A DNA stretch of 49,840 nucleotides from NCBI GenBank assembly GCA_040882425.1, contig JBBEBJ010000242.1:1-49840 (forward strand), given 5' to 3'. Made by a program: the position numbers and the translations under genes. The stretch is from Chloroflexota bacterium. Lineage in GTDB: Bacteria; Chloroflexota; Limnocylindria; Limnocylindrales; CSP1-4. This document shows, in pieces, positions 7,361 through 34,550 of this stretch (its first letter is position 1; each line of letters begins with the position of its first letter). A model generated the notes under the pieces. It worked only from the letters and a program-made list of their open reading frames with translations, was not told the origin of the DNA and ran no database searches.

Positions 7361-9712
7361 ATGGACCTTCGCTCGGCCGTCCTCCTGGAGTATCCGGCCG
7401 TCCGCGCCCGGCTGGCCGAGACCACCTCGTTCCCGCCGTCGCGCCACCTCGCCGAGACCCTCGAGCCGTCGGCCGACCCGGTGATCGTCGGTCGGGGTCT
7501 CGACGAGACCGACCAGATGCGGTCGCTGCTCGAGGAGCGGCCGGGCGTCGGGATCGGGGGCGCCCACGACATCGGGCCCGCCATCGAGCGCGCGGCCCGG
7601 GGCGGTCGCCTGGAACCGGCCCAGTTCCTGGAGATCGCGGATACGCTCGATGCCACGTCCCGGCTGGCGACGACCCTCGCCGACGAACGCCGGCCGCTCC
7701 TCCGCGACCTCGGCCCGGAGCTCCACGCCCTGCCGGCGCTTCGCTCGACCCTGGCCCGCAGCTTCGACCCGGTCGGCGAGCTCCTCGACACCGCCTCGCC
7801 GCGGCTGGGCGGCCTGCGTGCCGCCGTCCGGGTCGCGTACGACCGGCTCCGCCGGCGCCTGGACGCCCTCGTCGGGGCCGAGCTCGGCAGCGCCCTCCAG
7901 GAACCGATCGTCACGTTGCGCAACGGCCGTTACGTGGTCCCGGTCAAGGCCGAGGCTCGAGGTCGGGTCAAGGGCATCGTCCACGACGCGTCGGGCAGCG
8001 GCCAGACCCTGTTCATCGAGCCGCTTGTCGTCGTCGAGCTCGGCAACGCGTGGCGCGAGGCGCAGGTCGCCGAAGGCGAGGAGGTCGCGCGCATTCTCGA
8101 CGAGCTCTCGGCCTTCGTCGCGGCGAATGCGGCCGACCTCCGTGAGACCCTCGGGGCGCTGGCGCGCTTCGACCTCTGGGCGGCCAAGGCGGCCCTGTCC
8201 TCGGAGATGAACGCCTCGCGCGCGGAGACCGTGGAACGGTTCGAGGTCGAGCTCCTGTCGGCCCGCCATCCGGGCCTGACGGGCCGCGTCGTACCGATCG
8301 ACATCCGGCTCGGCGATGGATACACGGCGCTGGTCGTGACCGGTCCGAACACCGGTGGCAAGACGGTGACGCTGCGGACGCTCGGCCTGCTGAGCCTGAT
8401 GCACCAGGCCGGGTTGCACGTGCCCGCGGCACCCGGCAGCCGGTTGCCCATCTGGCGCGACGTGTTCGCGGACATCGGCGACGAGCAGTCGATCGCCCAG
8501 TCACTGTCCACCTTCTCCGGCCACCTCCGCTCGATCATCAGGATCGTCGAGTCGGCGGGTCCGGGGACCCTCGTCCTGCTCGACGAGCTCGGCGCGGGCA
8601 CCGATCCGACCGAGGGATCCGCCCTCGCCCAGGCGCTCCTCGACCACTTCATCCGGGCCGGCGCCCTCGTGGCGGCGACGACCCACTACGCCGAGCTCAA
8701 GGCCTACGCCCACACCACGACAGGTGTTCGAAACGCCGCGGTCGAGTTCGATCTCGAGACGCTTTCGCCGACCTATCGGCTCACGATCGGGCTGCCCGGC
8801 GGCAGCCAGGCGTTCGCGATCGCCGAGCGTCTCGGTCTCGACGAGGCGATCGTCGACGACGCACGCTCGAGGTTGACCGAATCGCAGCGGTCGTTCGAGG
8901 CGACCCTGGCCGCGATCCGCACAACCGAGGGTGAGACGAGCGACGCGCTCGACCGGGCCAGGGCGGCCGAGCTGCGGTCGGTCGAGCAGCTCCGGATCGC
9001 CGAGGAGGAACGCCGCCGAGCCCGACGCGAGCGCGACGAGGCGGTGCAGGCCGCGCGGGCCGCCGCCGAACGGATCGTCGAGGACCTTCGTGCGGAGGTC
9101 GACCAGGCGCGCCTGGCGCTGGAGCGCGAGACGTTGACCGCGACCGCGCTCGACCAGGCGATCAGCGAGGCGGAGGCCAGCCTCGAACGGCTGCCGGCCA
9201 CCGAGCCCGTTCCCGTGCCCGAGCCGATCGAGACGCGGAGCTGGCGACTCGGCGAGCGCGCGCGCAGCCGATCGGGCGGCTGGGAAGGGAGGATCGCGGC
9301 GCTCGAGCGGGGAGGACGACGCGCGACGCTCGAGGCCGGCGGGATGCGGGTCACCGTGGACGTGGATGACCTCGTCCTCGCCGTGGGCGGCGAGGTGCCC
9401 CCTGCGGAGGCCACGGCCGAGGCCGCACCGAACACGAACGCGTCGGCCCTGCGGCTCGATCGAGCGAGGCACGTCGCGTCGTCGCTCGACCTGCGGGGTG
9501 CGCGCGTCGAGGAGGCGCTCGAGGCGCTGAGCCGCTACCTCGACGACGCCGGTCTGGCCGGCCTGAACAAGGTGCTGATCATCCACGGCATGGGCACGGG
9601 TGCGCTCCGCGACGCCGTTCGCGCCGAGGCGTCCGGCCATCCGTTGGTCCGCTCGCTCCGCCCCGGGGAGCGCGGCGAGGGTGGCGACGGCGCAACGATC
9701 GTCGAGCTGTAG
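7361..9712 (+). CDS. mutS2: Endonuclease MutS2 (MutS domain plus C-terminal Smr domain)
   Basis: Walker A GPNTGGKTVTLRTLG and DELGAGTDPTEGSALA are present, followed by a coiled-coil region. The Smr domain reads LDLRGARVEEALEALSRYLDDA..LIIHGMGTGALR. ATG 7361 (MDLRSAVLLEYP..) is preferred over the track start 7049, whose extension overlaps mpg. Confidence 0.93.
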   Translation: MDLRSAVLLEYPAVRARLAETTSFPPSRHLAETLEPSADPVIVGRGLDETDQMRSLLEERPGVGIGGAHDIGPAIERAARGGRLEPAQFLEIADTLDATSRLATTLADERRPLLRDLGPELHALPALRSTLARSFDPVGELLDTASPRLGGLRAAVRVAYDRLRRRLDALVGAELGSALQEPIVTLRNGRYVVPVKAEARGRVKGIVHDASGSGQTLFIEPLVVVELGNAWREAQVAEGEEVARILDELSAFVAANAADLRETLGALARFDLWAAKAALSSEMNASRAETVERFEVELLSARHPGLTGRVVPIDIRLGDGYTALVVTGPNTGGKTVTLRTLGLLSLMHQAGLHVPAAPGSRLPIWRDVFADIGDEQSIAQSLSTFSGHLRSIIRIVESAGPGTLVLLDELGAGTDPTEGSALAQALLDHFIRAGALVAATTHYAELKAYAHTTTGVRNAAVEFDLETLSPTYRLTIGLPGGSQAFAIAERLGLDEAIVDDARSRLTESQRSFEATLAAIRTTEGETSDALDRARAAELRSVEQLRIAEEERRRARRERDEAVQAARAAAERIVEDLRAEVDQARLALERETLTATALDQAISEAEASLERLPATEPVPVPEPIETRSWRLGERARSRSGGWEGRIAALERGGRRATLEAGGMRVTVDVDDLVLAVGGEVPPAEATAEAAPNTNASALRLDRARHVASSLDLRGARVEEALEALSRYLDDAGLAGLNKVLIIHGMGTGALRDAVRAEASGHPLVRSLRPGERGEGGDGATIVEL

Positions 9713-21633: not shown

Positions 21634-21655
21634 CCAGGCCCCAGGCCGGAGTCGC

Positions 21656-21709
21656 GGGATCACGCACTGGATCGGGATCACGCACTGGATCGGGATCACG
21701 CACTGGATA
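21656..21709. repeat. Tandem repeat, 18-bp unit x3 (GGGATCACGCACTGGATC)
   Basis: Units at 21656-21673, 21674-21691 and 21692-21709; the last base of unit 3 differs. It starts 23 nt after the hisA stop and abuts the palindrome array. Confidence 0.9.
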
Positions 21710-21957
21710 TTGCCGTGCGAGCAACCAATCGCCGACCCTTGCCGCGGCAGCAAACAAACGCGAGCGGAGGCGCCTCATGTCCTCAAGGCGTGTCACCGAT
21801 TTGCCCCGCCGGCAAGGGATTCAAGCCGCGGTCCACGTCTGACGTCGAGAACACTCCCCAGTTGCTGCAGGTGCAACAGATCGAGTCAGGAGACCGGCCA
21901 CGGCACGTTTGTTTGCTCCGGCAGCAAGGCCAACCCCTGATCTTGCGGCTGCGGCAA
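21710..21957. repeat. Array of six TTGC-N7-GCAA palindromes (module copy 1)
   Basis: Sites at 21710-24, 21739-53, 21801-15, 21862-76, 21913-27 and 21943-57. Gaps between sites are 14, 47, 46, 36 and 15 nt. The 4+4 arms are invariant and the N7 cores are unrelated. The start of track ORF 21710 (TTG) confirms the coordinate register. Confidence 0.85.
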
Positions 21958-21987
21958 CGGATGACGTCACATGACGACTCGTGCGTA

Positions 21988-22043
21988 CCGCCAGGTCTCG
22001 GTCAGTGGCCCGGCGCGCCGCCAGGTCCCGCTCAGTGGCCCGG
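21988..22043. repeat. Imperfect 26-bp tandem duplication spanning the EF-G-like stop codon
   Basis: CCGCCAGGTCTCGGTCAGTGGCCCGG (21988-22013) and CCGCCAGGTCCCGCTCAGTGGCCCGG (22018-22043) differ at 2 positions. The second copy contains the gene's last codons and its TGA. Confidence 0.7.
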
Positions 22044-31073: not shown

Positions 31074-32323
31074 CTACCAGCGGGACGCGAGGTACGCCGC
31101 GTCGAGCGCCACGCCCGCCAGGTTGGCCGAGGCGTTGTTGTGCTGCCATAGGAGGCCAATGAATGTCAGTCCGGGCATCTCGCTGACGCCGCGGACGTGG
31201 TGCGGCGTGCCGAACTCGTCGAGGATCGGCAGGTCCAGCCAGTCGTAGTCCGGGGCATACCCTGTGGTCCAGAGGACCGTCGAGATGCCCTCGGCGGCGA
31301 GATCGAGCTCGGTGAGCCCGGGCGTTCGAACGAGGGCCAGGCACGGTCATCGGGTCCGACCTCGATGCCTGCCTTGTCGGCGAACGTGTCGCACAGCGAT
31401 CGGAAGCGCACGTCGAAGAACTCGTCCGCGAACCGCAGGTTCTCGCTGAGGTCCGGAGCGAACTCCGCGTGCTCGCCATGTGCGCCGGCAAATCGCCCGA
31501 CGAGCCGTAGCCCGTCGATCGCCATTTGCCGCAGGTTCGTGTCGTGCCCACCGTTGTGCCCCGACAGGTGCGGATTGCACGCGAACCGGAGCCGGCGCTC
31601 AGGGAACTGGTCGACCGTGGGGAGGGATGTGCCGAAATCCCCGCCTCGGGCGGCGAGCTGGCGGATCCACCAGAACGAGTCGTAGCCGCGATATCGGCGC
31701 GGCGCGCGACCGCACCGACCGACCGACAGCGTGACCTCCCGGCCGGCCGCCTGGAGCTCCTCGGCCAGCTGAACGCCGGTCTGCCCGGAGCCCACGATCA
31801 GCACGCCACCCGGCGGCAATTGCGTCTCGTTCCGGTAGGCATGCGCGTGGATCTGGGTGACCCGCGGCGAGAGGCCCACCGCCGCGGGCGGGACCTTGGG
31901 CCGGTGGAACGCACCGGTCGCGACGATCACCTCGTCCGCATCGACCGGACCCTCTGACGTCTTGAGGTGGAAGCGGCGGCCGCCGGAGCCGTCCGCGGAC
32001 AGGCGCTGGACCTCAGTCGTGCGGCTGACCGGTGCCCCGATCACGTCCTCATACCGGCGCATCCGGGCCGCCACCGCATCCCGGGGCATGAAGCTGTCGG
32101 GATCCGGATCGTCGTCCGGAAAGCCGGGCAACCCGGTCGTCCAGTTCGGACCGACCAGCACGAAGTTGTCCCAGCGGTCCTGCCAGCCGCCACCCAGGGT
32201 CTCCCGCCGATCGAGTACCACGTGTGGCCGTCCGGCGGTCTGGAGGTGCCAGCTCATGATCAGGCCGGCCTGGCCCGCCCCGATGACGACCGTCTCGATC
32301 GACCGCGGCAGTTCGTCCTTCAT
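31074..32323 (-). pseudogene. Flavin-containing (CzcO/FMO-like) NAD(P)-binding monooxygenase, reading frame interrupted near 31317-31322
   Basis: N-terminal [10 protein letters not shown] and a second dinucleotide motif IVGSGQTGVQLAEEL. After ..AWPSFERP the track frame becomes low-complexity. The adjacent frame reads GLTELDLAAEGISTVLWTTGYAPDYDWLDLPILDEFGTPHHVRGVSEMPGLTFIGLLWQHNNASANLAGVALDAAYLASRW and stops at 31076-31074. The frame switch occurs at a CCCGGG run. Confidence 0.8.
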
Positions 32324-32396
32324 TCGAGAAGTCTCGCATCGGACCGAACCCCAAGCCAAGCCCGAGCCTTGCTTCGGCGCCGCGCCAGCATGTTTC

Positions 32397-32615
32397 TTGC
32401 ACCGGCCGCAAGAAAAGGGCATGGTCTTGCGGCGGACGCAAGCAAACACGGTTCTGTCGCTCCACCGGGCCGATTCCTTGCGCGAGCGGCAAGAAACGGC
32501 CCTGATCGGCTCGCTGATACCGCGAGTTCCAACGCTCCTTGCTCCCTGGGCAAATTCGCAACCGCTGTCGTGGAGCCACCGAGTCGCTGCAGGCGTTTAC
32601 TTGCACCCGGGGCAA
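32397..32615. repeat. Array of five TTGC-N7-GCAA palindromes (module copy 2, opposite orientation to copy 1)
   Basis: Sites at 32397-411, 32427-41, 32478-92, 32539-53 and 32601-15. Gaps are 15, 36, 46 and 47 nt, exactly the reverse order of copy 1. The first site extends to a perfect 8-bp-arm palindrome TTTCTTGC-N7-GCAAGAAA (32393-32415). The start of track ORF 32539 (TTG) confirms the register. Confidence 0.85.
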
Positions 32616-32712
32616 GACCGGCGCGTGCGGGACCGGCGCGGACGTAGCGAGGCGCGGGCAAGACGGGCGCGCGCGGGCGGGGCAAGACCGGCGCGGGCGG
32701 GACCGGCGCCGG
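32609..32712. repeat. GC-rich direct repeats (GGCAAGACSGGCGCG x3; about 31-bp unit x2)
   Basis: GGGGCAAGACCGGCGCGTGCGGGACCGGCGC (32609-32639) recurs as GGGGCAAGACCGGCGCGGGCGGGACCGGCGC (32679-32709). A third partial copy, GGGCAAGACGGGCGCG, starts at 32656. Confidence 0.6.
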
Positions 32713-32789
32713 CGGCGGGCCAGCCGGGATGTCGGACCCAAGCCGGCCCACTCCGCTCCGCCCAGGGTTGCGGCCGCGCAAACCCATGG

Positions 32790-32818
32790 TTGCCGTTCTG
32801 GCCCTCGCGCCGTAGGCT
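32790..32818 (+). promoter_or_regulatory. Candidate sigma-70-type promoter for rny
   Basis: TTGCCG (32790-95), a 17-nt spacer, then TAGGCT (32813-18). This would give a roughly 200-nt leader. The -10 element lies inside the palindrome CCGTAG-G-CTACGG (32810-22). Confidence 0.3.
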
Positions 32819-33020
32819 ACGGGGCAGATCATTCGGCGCCGTTCGCGCGGCGCTACCACGCAAGTCCGGCGTCGATCGCGGCCCATTCATCCTGGTGGGA
32901 GCCGTCTTCATCGATGGGGCGGCGAGCTCCAAGGCGGCCTCGCCTCACACCCACCGGCGATCGCGCCATCGAATAATGAGGCGTCCGGCCGCACAACCCG
33001 GTCCGGATGGGAGGACACCG

Positions 33021-34550
33021 ATGGACATAGCGACGCTCGCGGTGGTAGCCCTCGTGGCCGCCGCCGGCGGAGCCGTACTCGGCGCAGTCGTGCGCAGCTT
33101 CTGGGCCTCGCAGACGATCAAGGCGGCCACCGCCGAGGCCCGCCGGATCGAGGCCGAAGCCCGGGCCCGCCAGAAGGAGCTGATCCTCGAGGCGAAGGAC
33201 GAGAAGCTCCGGATGCAGCGCGAGGCGGAGGAAGAGGCGCGCGCCAGGCGCGGCGAGCTGTCGGGCCTCGAGAGCCGGCTTCTCCAGCGTGACGAGCAGC
33301 TCGACCAGCGCAGCGACATGCTCGAACAGCGTGACCGCAAGCTCCTGGATCGCGAACGCGAGCTGGACAAGACCCGCGACGAGCTCGCCAGGGCCCACGG
33401 TGAACAGGTTGCCGCGCTCGAGCGGGTGTCGGGGATGTCCGCCGTCGAAGCGCGAACGATCCTGATCGAGGCGGTCCGCGAGGAGGCCGAACACGACGCG
33501 GTCAAGCTCGCCCGGGCAATCGAGCGGAGCGCCCGCGAGGAAGCACAGGACAAGGCCCGCGACATCGTGATCACCGCGATGCAACGCGTCGCCGCCGACC
33601 ACACGGCCGAGCACACGGTTTCGGTCGTTCACTTGCCGTCGGACGAGATGAAGGGCCGCATCATCGGCCGGGAGGGTCGCAATATCCGCGCCCTCGAGCA
33701 GGCGACCGGGATCGACCTGATCATCGACGACACGCCCGAAACCGTGATCCTGTCGGGCTTCGACCCCGTTCGACGGGAGATCGCCAGGCTCGCCATCACC
33801 AAGCTGATCGCCGACGGCCGGATCCACCCGGGCCGGATCGAGGAGGTCGTGACCAAGGCCCGTGCCGAGGTCGACGTGGTCATGCGCCAGGCCGGCGAGC
33901 AGGCTGCGTACGACGCCGGCGTCCCGGGCCTGCCAGCCGACATCATCAAGACGCTGGGCCGGCTCAAGTTCCGCACGAGCTACGGCCAGAACGTGCTCAA
34001 CCACGTGGTCGAGACGAGCCACCTGGCCGCGATCATCGCCGCCGAGATCGGGGCGGACGTCCAGGTCGCCAAGATGGGCGGACTGCTCCACGACATCGGC
34101 AAGGCGCTCGACCACGAGATCGAGGGCCCGCACGCGGCAATCGGGGCGAGCCTCGCCCAGCGCCACAACCTGTCGCCCAAGGTCATCAACGCCATCGCGG
34201 CCCACCACCAGGAAGTCGAGTACACGTGCCTCGAGGCGCCCATCGTTCAGATCGCCGACGCGATCAGCGCGTCGCGCCCCGGCGCCCGTGGCGAGTCGAT
34301 GGACACCTACGTCAAGCGGCTCGAGGATCTCCAGGCGATCGCCGAGAGTTTCGGTGGCGTCGAGAAGTCCTTTGCGGTGCAGGCCGGTCGCGAGGTCCGG
34401 ATCCTGGTCCGTCCCGAGGAGATCGACGACCTCACGGCCAGCCGGCTCGCCCGCGACATCGTCAAGAAGATCGAGGAACAGCTGACCTACCCGGGCCAGA
34501 TCAAGGTGACGGTCATCCGCGAGACGCGGGCCGTGGAGTACGCGAAGTGA
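33021..34550 (+). CDS. rny: Ribonuclease Y
   Basis: N-terminal TM helix, a coiled coil, a KH domain ([31 protein letters not shown]) and an HD domain (..[30 protein letters not shown]). ATG 33021 has GGGAGGA upstream. The track's 897-aa ORF is an upstream over-extension. Confidence 0.96.

Follow-up and report, generated by a model that had tools for sequence, protein, structure and literature searches.

The stretch of DNA analysed here, referred to as the window, comprises 49,840 nucleotides of contig JBBEBJ010000242.1 from a Chloroflexota bacterium of the Limnocylindrales. It contains two arrays of 15-bp palindromes of the form TTGC-N7-GCAA, members of an undescribed array family in which five DNA sites are arranged in helical phase and which is dispersed in uncultured high-GC Chloroflexota. 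Array 1 occupies the 398-bp convergent spacer between the stop codon of hisA (21633) and that of an elongation factor G (EF-G)-like gene (22032), both identities being confirmed by Pfam. An exact motif scan reproduced the six sites, coordinates and spacings described for this spacer in a first-pass annotation of the sequence: the sites start at 21710, 21739, 21801, 21862, 21913 and 21943, with start-to-start distances of 29, 62, 61, 51 and 30 bp. Across the whole window the scan returned 11 exact sites against 0.22 expected, in keeping with the earlier estimate of less than one chance occurrence per 50 kb, and none of 100 shuffles reached 11. Allowing one mismatch added only five isolated sites, which is the chance level.

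The last five sites of array 1 are designated S_A to S_E. The 7-nt flanks of sites 2 and 5 (S_A and S_D) are inverted repeats of one another, ACAAACG at 21754-21760 and CGTTTGT at 21906-21912, and a 24-nt inverted repeat connects the S_A and S_D regions. None of the other family members examined has, at the equivalent position, a counterpart of the outermost site, site 1. No promoter-like or terminator-like consensus site, including a U-tract terminator, was found in the array 1 region, which agrees with the earlier judgement that the palindromes are not simple terminators. The features of array 1 are as follows.

21655-21708, unstranded: perfect tandem repeat of 3 x 18 bp, adjoining array 1 on its S_A side
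21710-21724, unstranded: site 1, extra outer site TTGCCGTGCGAGCAA, 29 bp before S_A and mirroring the D-E pair
21739-21760, plus strand: S_A, TTGCCGCGGCAGCAA with right flank ACAAACG, an extended site that is the inverted repeat of S_D with its flank
21801-21815, unstranded: S_B, TTGCCCCGCCGGCAA, 62 bp after S_A
21862-21876, unstranded: S_C, TTGCTGCAGGTGCAA, 61 bp after S_B, across the B-C spacer, whose length is variable and quantised
21906-21927, plus strand: S_D, left flank CGTTTGT with TTGCTCCGGCAGCAA, 51 bp after S_C
21943-21957, unstranded: S_E, TTGCGGCTGCGGCAA, 30 bp after S_D

The remaining five of the 11 sites, absent from the first-pass annotation, form array 2, with spacings of 30, 51, 61 and 62 bp. 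Its layout is that of array 1 in the opposite orientation. Array 2 sits in the divergent spacer between a flavin adenine dinucleotide (FAD) monooxygenase gene (minus strand, start at ~32323) and the RNase Y gene (plus strand), with S_E 58-74 bp upstream of the monooxygenase start codon.

32397-32615, minus strand: array 2, with S_E at 32397, S_D at 32427, S_C at 32478, S_B at 32539 and S_A at 32601
32442-32450 and 32592-32600: flanks of array 2, S_D flank GCAAACACG and S_A flank GGCGTTTAC, respectively
32610-32727, unstranded: imperfect tandem repeats with periods of 15-24 bp, adjoining array 2 on its S_A side

The two arrays are 10.4 kb apart, and the interval carries yebC, ruvA, an Rrf2 regulator gene, ruvB, tgt, recA, recX and the monooxygenase gene. 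A transposon bounded by the two inverted arrays was considered and, because core genes lie between them, ruled out. An open frame of 897 aa (31857-34550, plus strand) crosses array 2; only its downstream part is real and represents RNase Y, with RNase_Y_N, KH and HD domains, while the upstream part runs antisense to the monooxygenase gene and is a shadow frame of high-GC DNA. At the other locus, a duplicated 30-bp unit (21983-22042) spans the EF-G-like stop codon.

A five-site array family in high-GC Chloroflexota

A scan of other genomes for the motif and its spacing, as proposed in the first-pass annotation, showed the window array to be one copy of a dispersed five-site family. With one genome per species and a query of three TTGC-N7-GCAA sites ~51 and ~30 bp apart, 70 loci were recovered, 42 of them in high-GC (66-73%) Chloroflexota metagenome-assembled genomes (MAGs). 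Together with the two window arrays this gives 44 arrays spread over ~20 such MAGs, which are labelled Chloroflexia, Limnocylindria/Limnocylindrales, Thermomicrobiales or Anaerolinea. Several genomes have more than one array locus, and eight lie on a single 2.57-Mb contig. When one mismatch per site was allowed, the 44 arrays shared one architecture, in which S_A and S_B are 61/62 bp apart, S_B to S_C is variable, S_C to S_D is 50/51 bp and S_D to S_E is 29-31 bp. The right flank of S_A and the left flank of S_D are conserved across the family as inverted repeats of each other. The first-pass description of fixed arms and free cores stands for the arms, which never vary; for the cores it holds in the lineage of the window but is not fully true of most others, where the site consensus is TTGC-R-Y-s-n-s-R-Y-GCAA. 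Literature searches on the motif and on Limnocylindria palindromes returned no description of the family.

In the 44 arrays the length of the B-C spacer is restricted to 39-40, 50-51, 60-62, 71-73 and 92 bp, with a best-fit period of 10.5-10.6 bp and a resultant of 0.944 that none of 2000 random sets reached. All spacings in the arrays follow n x 10.5 - 1.7 bp, and consecutive sites therefore lie on one slightly spiralling face of B-form DNA. The helical phasing noted earlier is thus upheld, with its 10.2-10.4 bp per turn refined to 10.5-10.6 bp and an offset of about -1.7 bp per interval. The single 92-bp spacer contains a 20-bp internal duplication, which shows a route by which spacer length can change while phase is preserved. 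Since spacers differ in steps of 10-11 bp, a coding reading is excluded, in agreement with the earlier remark that no frame in the array 1 spacer looks coding.

These observations point to arrays that are read as double-stranded DNA on one helix face and not as RNA. The alternative holds that the palindromes are RNA or single-strand hairpins, serving as a structured noncoding RNA, a 3' untranslated region element or protein-dependent terminators between convergent genes. Array 1 does lie between convergent genes, a 4-bp stem is possible at each site, and the S_A and S_D regions are linked by the 24-nt inverted repeat, but spacer quantisation at 10.5 bp is meaningless for RNA. Within the sites, the four outer pairs are invariant and so offer no covariation, while in 35-40% of 150 distinct sites there is no pairing at positions 5/11 and 6/10; the counts at positions 5/11 (AT 32, GT 28, GC 28, AC 28) reflect independent assortment. 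A long-range RNA helix formed by the flanks of S_A and S_D was rejected: these flanks are inverted repeats, yet 3 of the 8 copies of one genome have a mismatch between the first base of the S_A flank and the last base of the S_D flank. RNA folding of the array was no better than that of shuffled sequence on either strand (z = -0.94 and -1.40), and Rfam gave nothing at the gathering score, with best values of E = 3.2 and E = 0.67 at permissive thresholds, so a known RNA family was rejected as well. The arrays also occur in both orientations and in divergent spacers, and a U-tract terminator is missing. We consider a hairpin function of this kind very improbable, and the hairpin-binding RNA protein offered as an alternative in the first-pass annotation finds no support either.

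The arrays are old. Spacer interiors are 0.36-0.42 identical among copies of one genome, compared with 0.32-0.34 between genomes; the within-genome value is near random for the base composition, while arms, spacing and flanks are retained. The arrays therefore have not spread recently. One locus (L032) is orthologous to that of array 1, with the order hisH-hisA-array-EF-G-like-yebC. Between the two, the EF-G-like proteins are 83% and the HisA proteins 65% identical in amino acid sequence, while in the spacer the sites alone align and the B-C distance is 40 bp instead of 61 bp. Despite the orthologous position, the core and flank types of L032 are unlike those of the window. More generally, core and flank types are uniform among the copies of one genome and differ between genomes, as expected if all arrays in a genome track one trans-acting factor.

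By rough gene calls, 16 arrays are in convergent, 13 in co-directional and 2 in divergent positions. These calls are crude, and only approximate because array 2 of the window truly lies in a divergent spacer; the genomes are MAGs, some nanopore-derived with apparent frameshifts. Further arrays occur about once per 80 kb in DNA flanking the ascertained arrays, and extrapolation suggests a copy number of tens per genome. Tandem repeats make up 16.3% of the non-coding 150-bp array flanks, compared with 3.4% of other non-coding DNA. The short tandem repeats that abut many arrays are unrelated in sequence (window; loci L007-L068). In each of the three arm classes described below, some sites, often S_B or S_C, are followed by a secondary motif resembling (G)GAWTCGACC or GTTCGACC (examples in L006, L007, L011, L191, L201 and L204), which a constant region of the binding protein or another factor might recognise. 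In L196, a second array at 8255-8462 (spacings 30, 51, 50 and 62 bp) is directly upstream of rpoD, which is bracketed there by one array upstream and one downstream.

The HTH_31 gene beside the arrays

Among 143 array-neighbouring genes, the recurrent families were sigma-70/primase, reflecting rpoD synteny, and HTH_31. The HTH_31 gene encodes a protein of ~220 aa, and its stop codon is found just before S_A in 7 of the first 44 arrays. The protein family has 758 database members at E <= 1e-5; the named ones are all called XRE-family or helix-turn-helix (HTH) regulators, and two are labelled Chloroflexota. We examined 18 loci that encode homologues, the 7 from the first arrays and 11 fetched later. 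A TTGC array follows the homologue stop codon in 12 of the 18, always with S_A proximal. The array starts 13-154 bp past the stop codon in 11 of these loci, and in L195 S_A overlaps the gene end. The 12 gene-array loci have at least three right-hand contexts (rpoD, DsrE-like and CNNM), and three of the 18 loci have arrays with other arms, ATAC/GTAT or ATCC/GGAT. In L002 and L016 the HTH_31 gene beside the array is split over frames, which may reflect sequencing frameshifts or pseudogenes; both loci carry the relaxed core type, as does the window.

The full-length model of the protein had a pLDDT (predicted local distance difference test score) of 79.7, and its N-terminal domain matched the XRE-type HTH dimers C.BclI, ClgR, HipB and SinR. 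The C-terminal 137 residues, modelled alone, gave a pLDDT of 86.9 and a predicted template modelling score (pTM) of 0.82, with an alpha-beta-beta-beta-alpha-beta core. The top-ranked and most other PDB fold matches of this domain were PD-(D/E)XK nucleases, and the matches include EcoT38I, archaeal Hjc resolvases, the small subunit of R.BspD6I, SfsA, XisH and RecU. Across 16 homologues with 51-78% identity to the first sequence, three features do not vary: a GD motif, a Glu-x-Glu motif and a Lys. The models thus give a weak indication of a restriction endonuclease/Holliday resolvase-like (PD-(D/E)XK) fold; the domain might cut DNA or might only dimerise the protein. The literature holds no description of this domain that we could find.

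The arms of the sites change with the recognition helix of the adjacent protein. Proteins beside TTGC arrays have a recognition helix of the type LSASEVSRIERG. Helices of the type ISNAE(V/W)SRIER are paired with ATAC-N7-GTAT arms; in the protein P0120 the helix reads ISNAEVSRIERA, and ATAC-N7-GTAT sites spaced 62, 50, 51 and 30 bp apart lie downstream of its gene (L200). This motif has three occurrences in the first 465 kb of high-GC sequence examined, all in the P0120 array. In P0119 and P0077 the helix is LSQ(A/P)AM(S/T)RFEH, and ATCC-N7-GGAT sites precede the gene (L201, L191); CATCCGCCCAGCGGATG, for instance, occurs three times within 335 bp. A metagenome scan with a query of three ATAC sites spaced 51 and 30 bp apart recovered 12 high-GC contigs, 7 of which come from a single sample; they carry five-site arrays or, in two cases, four-site arrays. 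Their spacings are, in order, 62/63, 51/61/62/71, 50-52 and 30 bp. Similar to the TTGC class, the ATAC arrays have symmetric S_A and S_D flanks, GAAGTCGACG / CGTCGACTTC, and the same relaxation of the flank-adjacent arm base. On two of these contigs, L237 and L238, the array begins where the gene of a P0120 homologue (61% identity) ends; the helix of the L237 homologue reads ISNAEWSRIERH. Both the TTGC and ATAC classes thus have a gene-adjacent copy and dispersed copies. Collectively, arm class follows helix class, with at least two and probably three arm classes on one architecture.

This co-variation is the main evidence that the HTH_31 protein reads the arrays, and this XRE-type protein with its nuclease-like domain is their most likely binder. 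The sequence-specific dimeric DNA-binding protein postulated in the first-pass annotation gains support from the helical quantisation of the spacers, the invariant arms with often unpaired inner positions, the unremarkable RNA folding together with the lack of an Rfam match, and the co-variation of helix and arm.

Proposed explanation and its rivals

The explanation that we favour, and consider probable, is that the arrays are dispersed chromosomal phased operators bound by the HTH_31 protein with its nuclease-like domain. Each 15-bp TTGC-N7-GCAA site would be read on duplex DNA by an XRE-type HTH dimer. Five dimers, or six at array 1 of the window, would sit at whole 10.5-bp turns minus ~1.7 bp, and the aligned dimers would contact one another to form one nucleoprotein complex over ~230-300 bp. 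Protein subfamilies with different recognition helices would serve arrays of identical geometry and different arms. As a working guess, the tight DNA-bound complex at gene ends may act as a barrier or as the target of the nuclease-like domain. Tandem duplications show a five-fold excess next to arrays, which is consistent with, but does not prove, repeated stalling or breakage at these places. The data show the arrays and their architecture, the helical quantisation, the age and syntenic persistence of the arrays, the adjacency of gene and array and the co-variation of helix and arm; binding of this protein to the sites, its cooperativity and the role of the complex are inferred.

On the side of the protein, the closest known systems are XRE/Cro-type dimers. 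Their operators, such as ACAA-N6-TTGT of the phage 434 repressor and the four HipB operators, likewise have invariant 4-bp outer arms and a variable centre, with one dimer per site and several sites read cooperatively. At the level of the family, the association with an array in 12 of the 18 protein loci and the arms that follow the helix agree with an operator of this type. XRE/Cro operators are single regulatory regions for adjacent genes, whereas here the sites form a genome-wide multi-site family and the protein has a nuclease-like domain. The pairs parS/ParB, NBS/Noc and matS/MatP also consist of dispersed chromosomal sites with a dedicated protein. They resemble the arrays in having tens of sites per chromosome, one HTH-type reader and a site at its own gene, as with parS within spo0J, but their sites are single palindromes and not a phased five-site array per locus. 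No ParB-type or ParA-type partner was seen among the array-neighbouring genes. The arrays are also distinct from CRISPR loci, as they consist of 15-bp dyads with differing cores at unequal spacings of 30, 51, 61 and 62 bp.

A more ambitious version of this explanation can be put forward only tentatively, and we think it rather doubtful as a whole. It holds that the PD-(D/E)XK domain is active and that five or six dimers of the XRE-HTH protein assemble on the dispersed arrays in at least two, probably three, co-evolving specificity classes (TTGC, ATAC and ATCC). The complex would act by nicking, cleavage, junction resolution or as a barrier to forks or transcription, leaving tandem duplications. 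The arrays and protein would then be an undescribed chromosome-wide system of a class-level uncultured Chloroflexota lineage and a duplex-DNA analogue of REP/RAYT.

Several findings count against the operator explanation. The candidate protein is not encoded in the 50-kb window, and its presence in the source genome is assumed. The lineage of the window lacks the purine/pyrimidine core preference found in most lineages, and in the single case of a protein from a genome that shares these relaxed cores (L002) the helix reads LSESQVSRIERG. Among the homologue loci, L199 has a decayed TTGC array, and L192 and L193 have no array, nor were alternative palindrome arrays found there by search. The nuclease-fold matches are weak (best E = 7.5e-3, template modelling score ~0.4), and in Pfam, PDB, NCBIfam, PADLOC and PHROGs the C-terminal domain had no sequence match, the HTH part alone being matched. 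The positions of the arrays relative to genes are mixed, and the adjacency of gene and array could also be explained by a mobile module made up of the two.

The main rival builds on this last point and takes the arrays as selfish repeats similar to REP elements or to miniature inverted-repeat transposable elements (MITEs), in which gene plus array would be the autonomous form, encoding a PD-(D/E)XK nuclease or transposase, and solitary arrays the non-autonomous form. The palindromes would then be sites for the enzyme and would not serve the host. Such an origin would account for multi-copy intergenic arrays that are mostly at gene ends or between convergent genes, for a copy beside a protein gene that itself occupies several different neighbourhoods, for the catalytic-type residues kept in the nuclease-like domain and for the frequent tandem duplications next to arrays. 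The uniformity of core and flank types within a genome is a further parallel with REP/RAYT systems. By logic REP/REPIN with RAYT is in fact the closest known system: the repeats are dispersed, extragenic and hairpin-forming, often at gene ends, with a copy beside a nuclease-type gene, the repeat class matches the protein class in each genome, and the system is long-lived and vertically inherited. The arrays are similarly multi-copy, extragenic, long-lived, vertically inherited and class-specific to the protein, with one copy flanking its gene. They are not a member of this group, however, as the cognate RAYT is a HUH/Y1 transposase (IS200/IS605-like) and the array-adjacent protein, with an XRE HTH and a PD-(D/E)XK-like domain, has Pfam matches to HTH_31/HTH_3 alone. 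A REP repeat is a GC-rich hairpin present in hundreds of copies; here a 230-300-bp phased duplex array of five dyads is present in tens, and with only four invariant base pairs per site there is no stable compensated hairpin. Recent spread is contradicted by the near-random spacers within genomes, in which all eight arm bases and the phase are nevertheless kept, and by persistence at the orthologous locus at 83% and 65% identity of the EF-G-like and HisA proteins. Neither terminal inverted repeats, target-site duplications nor conserved element boundaries beyond the sites were seen, which speaks against the MITE end raised earlier as a possible refutation. The core genes yebC, ruvAB, tgt, recA and recX also lie in the 10.4 kb between the window arrays. 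We regard a selfish origin as unlikely.

A different proposal assigns the sites to another oligomeric regulator encoded elsewhere, most plausibly a DNA-wrapping protein of the Lrp/AsnC (feast/famine) type, and takes the adjacency of the HTH_31 gene as a coincidence of synteny. Lrp-type proteins bind 13-17-bp imperfect palindromes arrayed on one helix face with a spacing of 2-3 turns (PMC2995911), and Ss-LrpB, an archaeal Lrp-like protein of Sulfolobus solfataricus, binds three regularly spaced 15-bp boxes with the consensus TTGCAAAATTTGCAA, with ~100 bp of DNA wrapped (PMC1802622, PMC2995911). By site, the Ss-LrpB operator is the closest known system, as the arrays likewise consist of several 15-bp palindromes of the same form placed on one helix face, here at n x 10.5 - 1.7 bp; cooperative binding and wrapped DNA are features of Ss-LrpB itself. 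Its boxes have an A+T-rich centre and belong to the promoter regions of a few targets, whereas the array cores are G+C-rich and the five sites are 6, n, 5 and 3 turns apart, mostly at gene ends, next to a protein that is not Lrp. No Lrp/AsnC protein was found among the families common to at least two of the 143 array-neighbouring genes, although its gene could be unlinked. The arms change with the helix of the adjacent HTH_31 homologue in three classes, which an unlinked binder does not explain, and we give this proposal little credence.

If the operator explanation holds, the arrays and the HTH_31 protein would represent a novel combination of a scattered cis-element and a protein devoted to it, with at least two switches of protein specificity on an unchanged geometry of the complex. 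The family would then offer a natural test set for the coding of arm sequence by the recognition helix, for the helical phasing that multi-dimer complexes impose on evolving spacers and for the role of a chromosomal HTH-nuclease fusion at tens of genomic sites. Long intergenic stretches that otherwise lack an explanation would also gain an annotation, in a lineage that is widespread in soil and freshwater and represented by MAGs alone.

TTGC-N7-GCAA sites in other organisms

Low-GC Bacteroidota have three-site arrays with spacings of 50/51 and 29-31 bp in divergent promoter regions. In nine loci (L003, L010, L017, L020, L039, L041, L054, L060 and L063) the array is directly upstream of a gene for a ~330-aa BetR-type HTH protein (PF08667), and this holds even among proteins just 27-38% identical. 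The arrangement looks like a separate regulator-operator system. The BetR-type regulator was considered as a homologue of the Chloroflexota protein and rejected, as hhalign gives only a weak HTH match.

In Saprospiraceae, near-identical modules of ~200 bp with three sites such as TTGCGGAATCCGCAA occur in several copies per genome (L004, L008, L012, L025, L027, L035, L038, L040, L053 and L069). The module is 143-149 bp upstream of different genes for secreted proteins (with a type IX secretion system tail, DUF6261 and others) in 7 loci; in L027, L040 and L069 the distance between module and gene differs, at 18-229 bp.

A scan of viral contigs with loose spacing yielded mostly coding repeats (9, 18, 27 and 54 bp) and iteron-like arrays and was uninformative for the family. 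On ten of these contigs (L073, L081, L098, L119, L125, L159, L160, L167, L181 and L183) sites recur every 22-23 bp in runs of 4-8, an iteron-like or centromere-like pattern unrelated to the five-site architecture. Finally, a Lachnospiraceae MAG (L070) has a tandem 53-bp repeat at 121-294 with TTGCACATAATGCAA in each unit.

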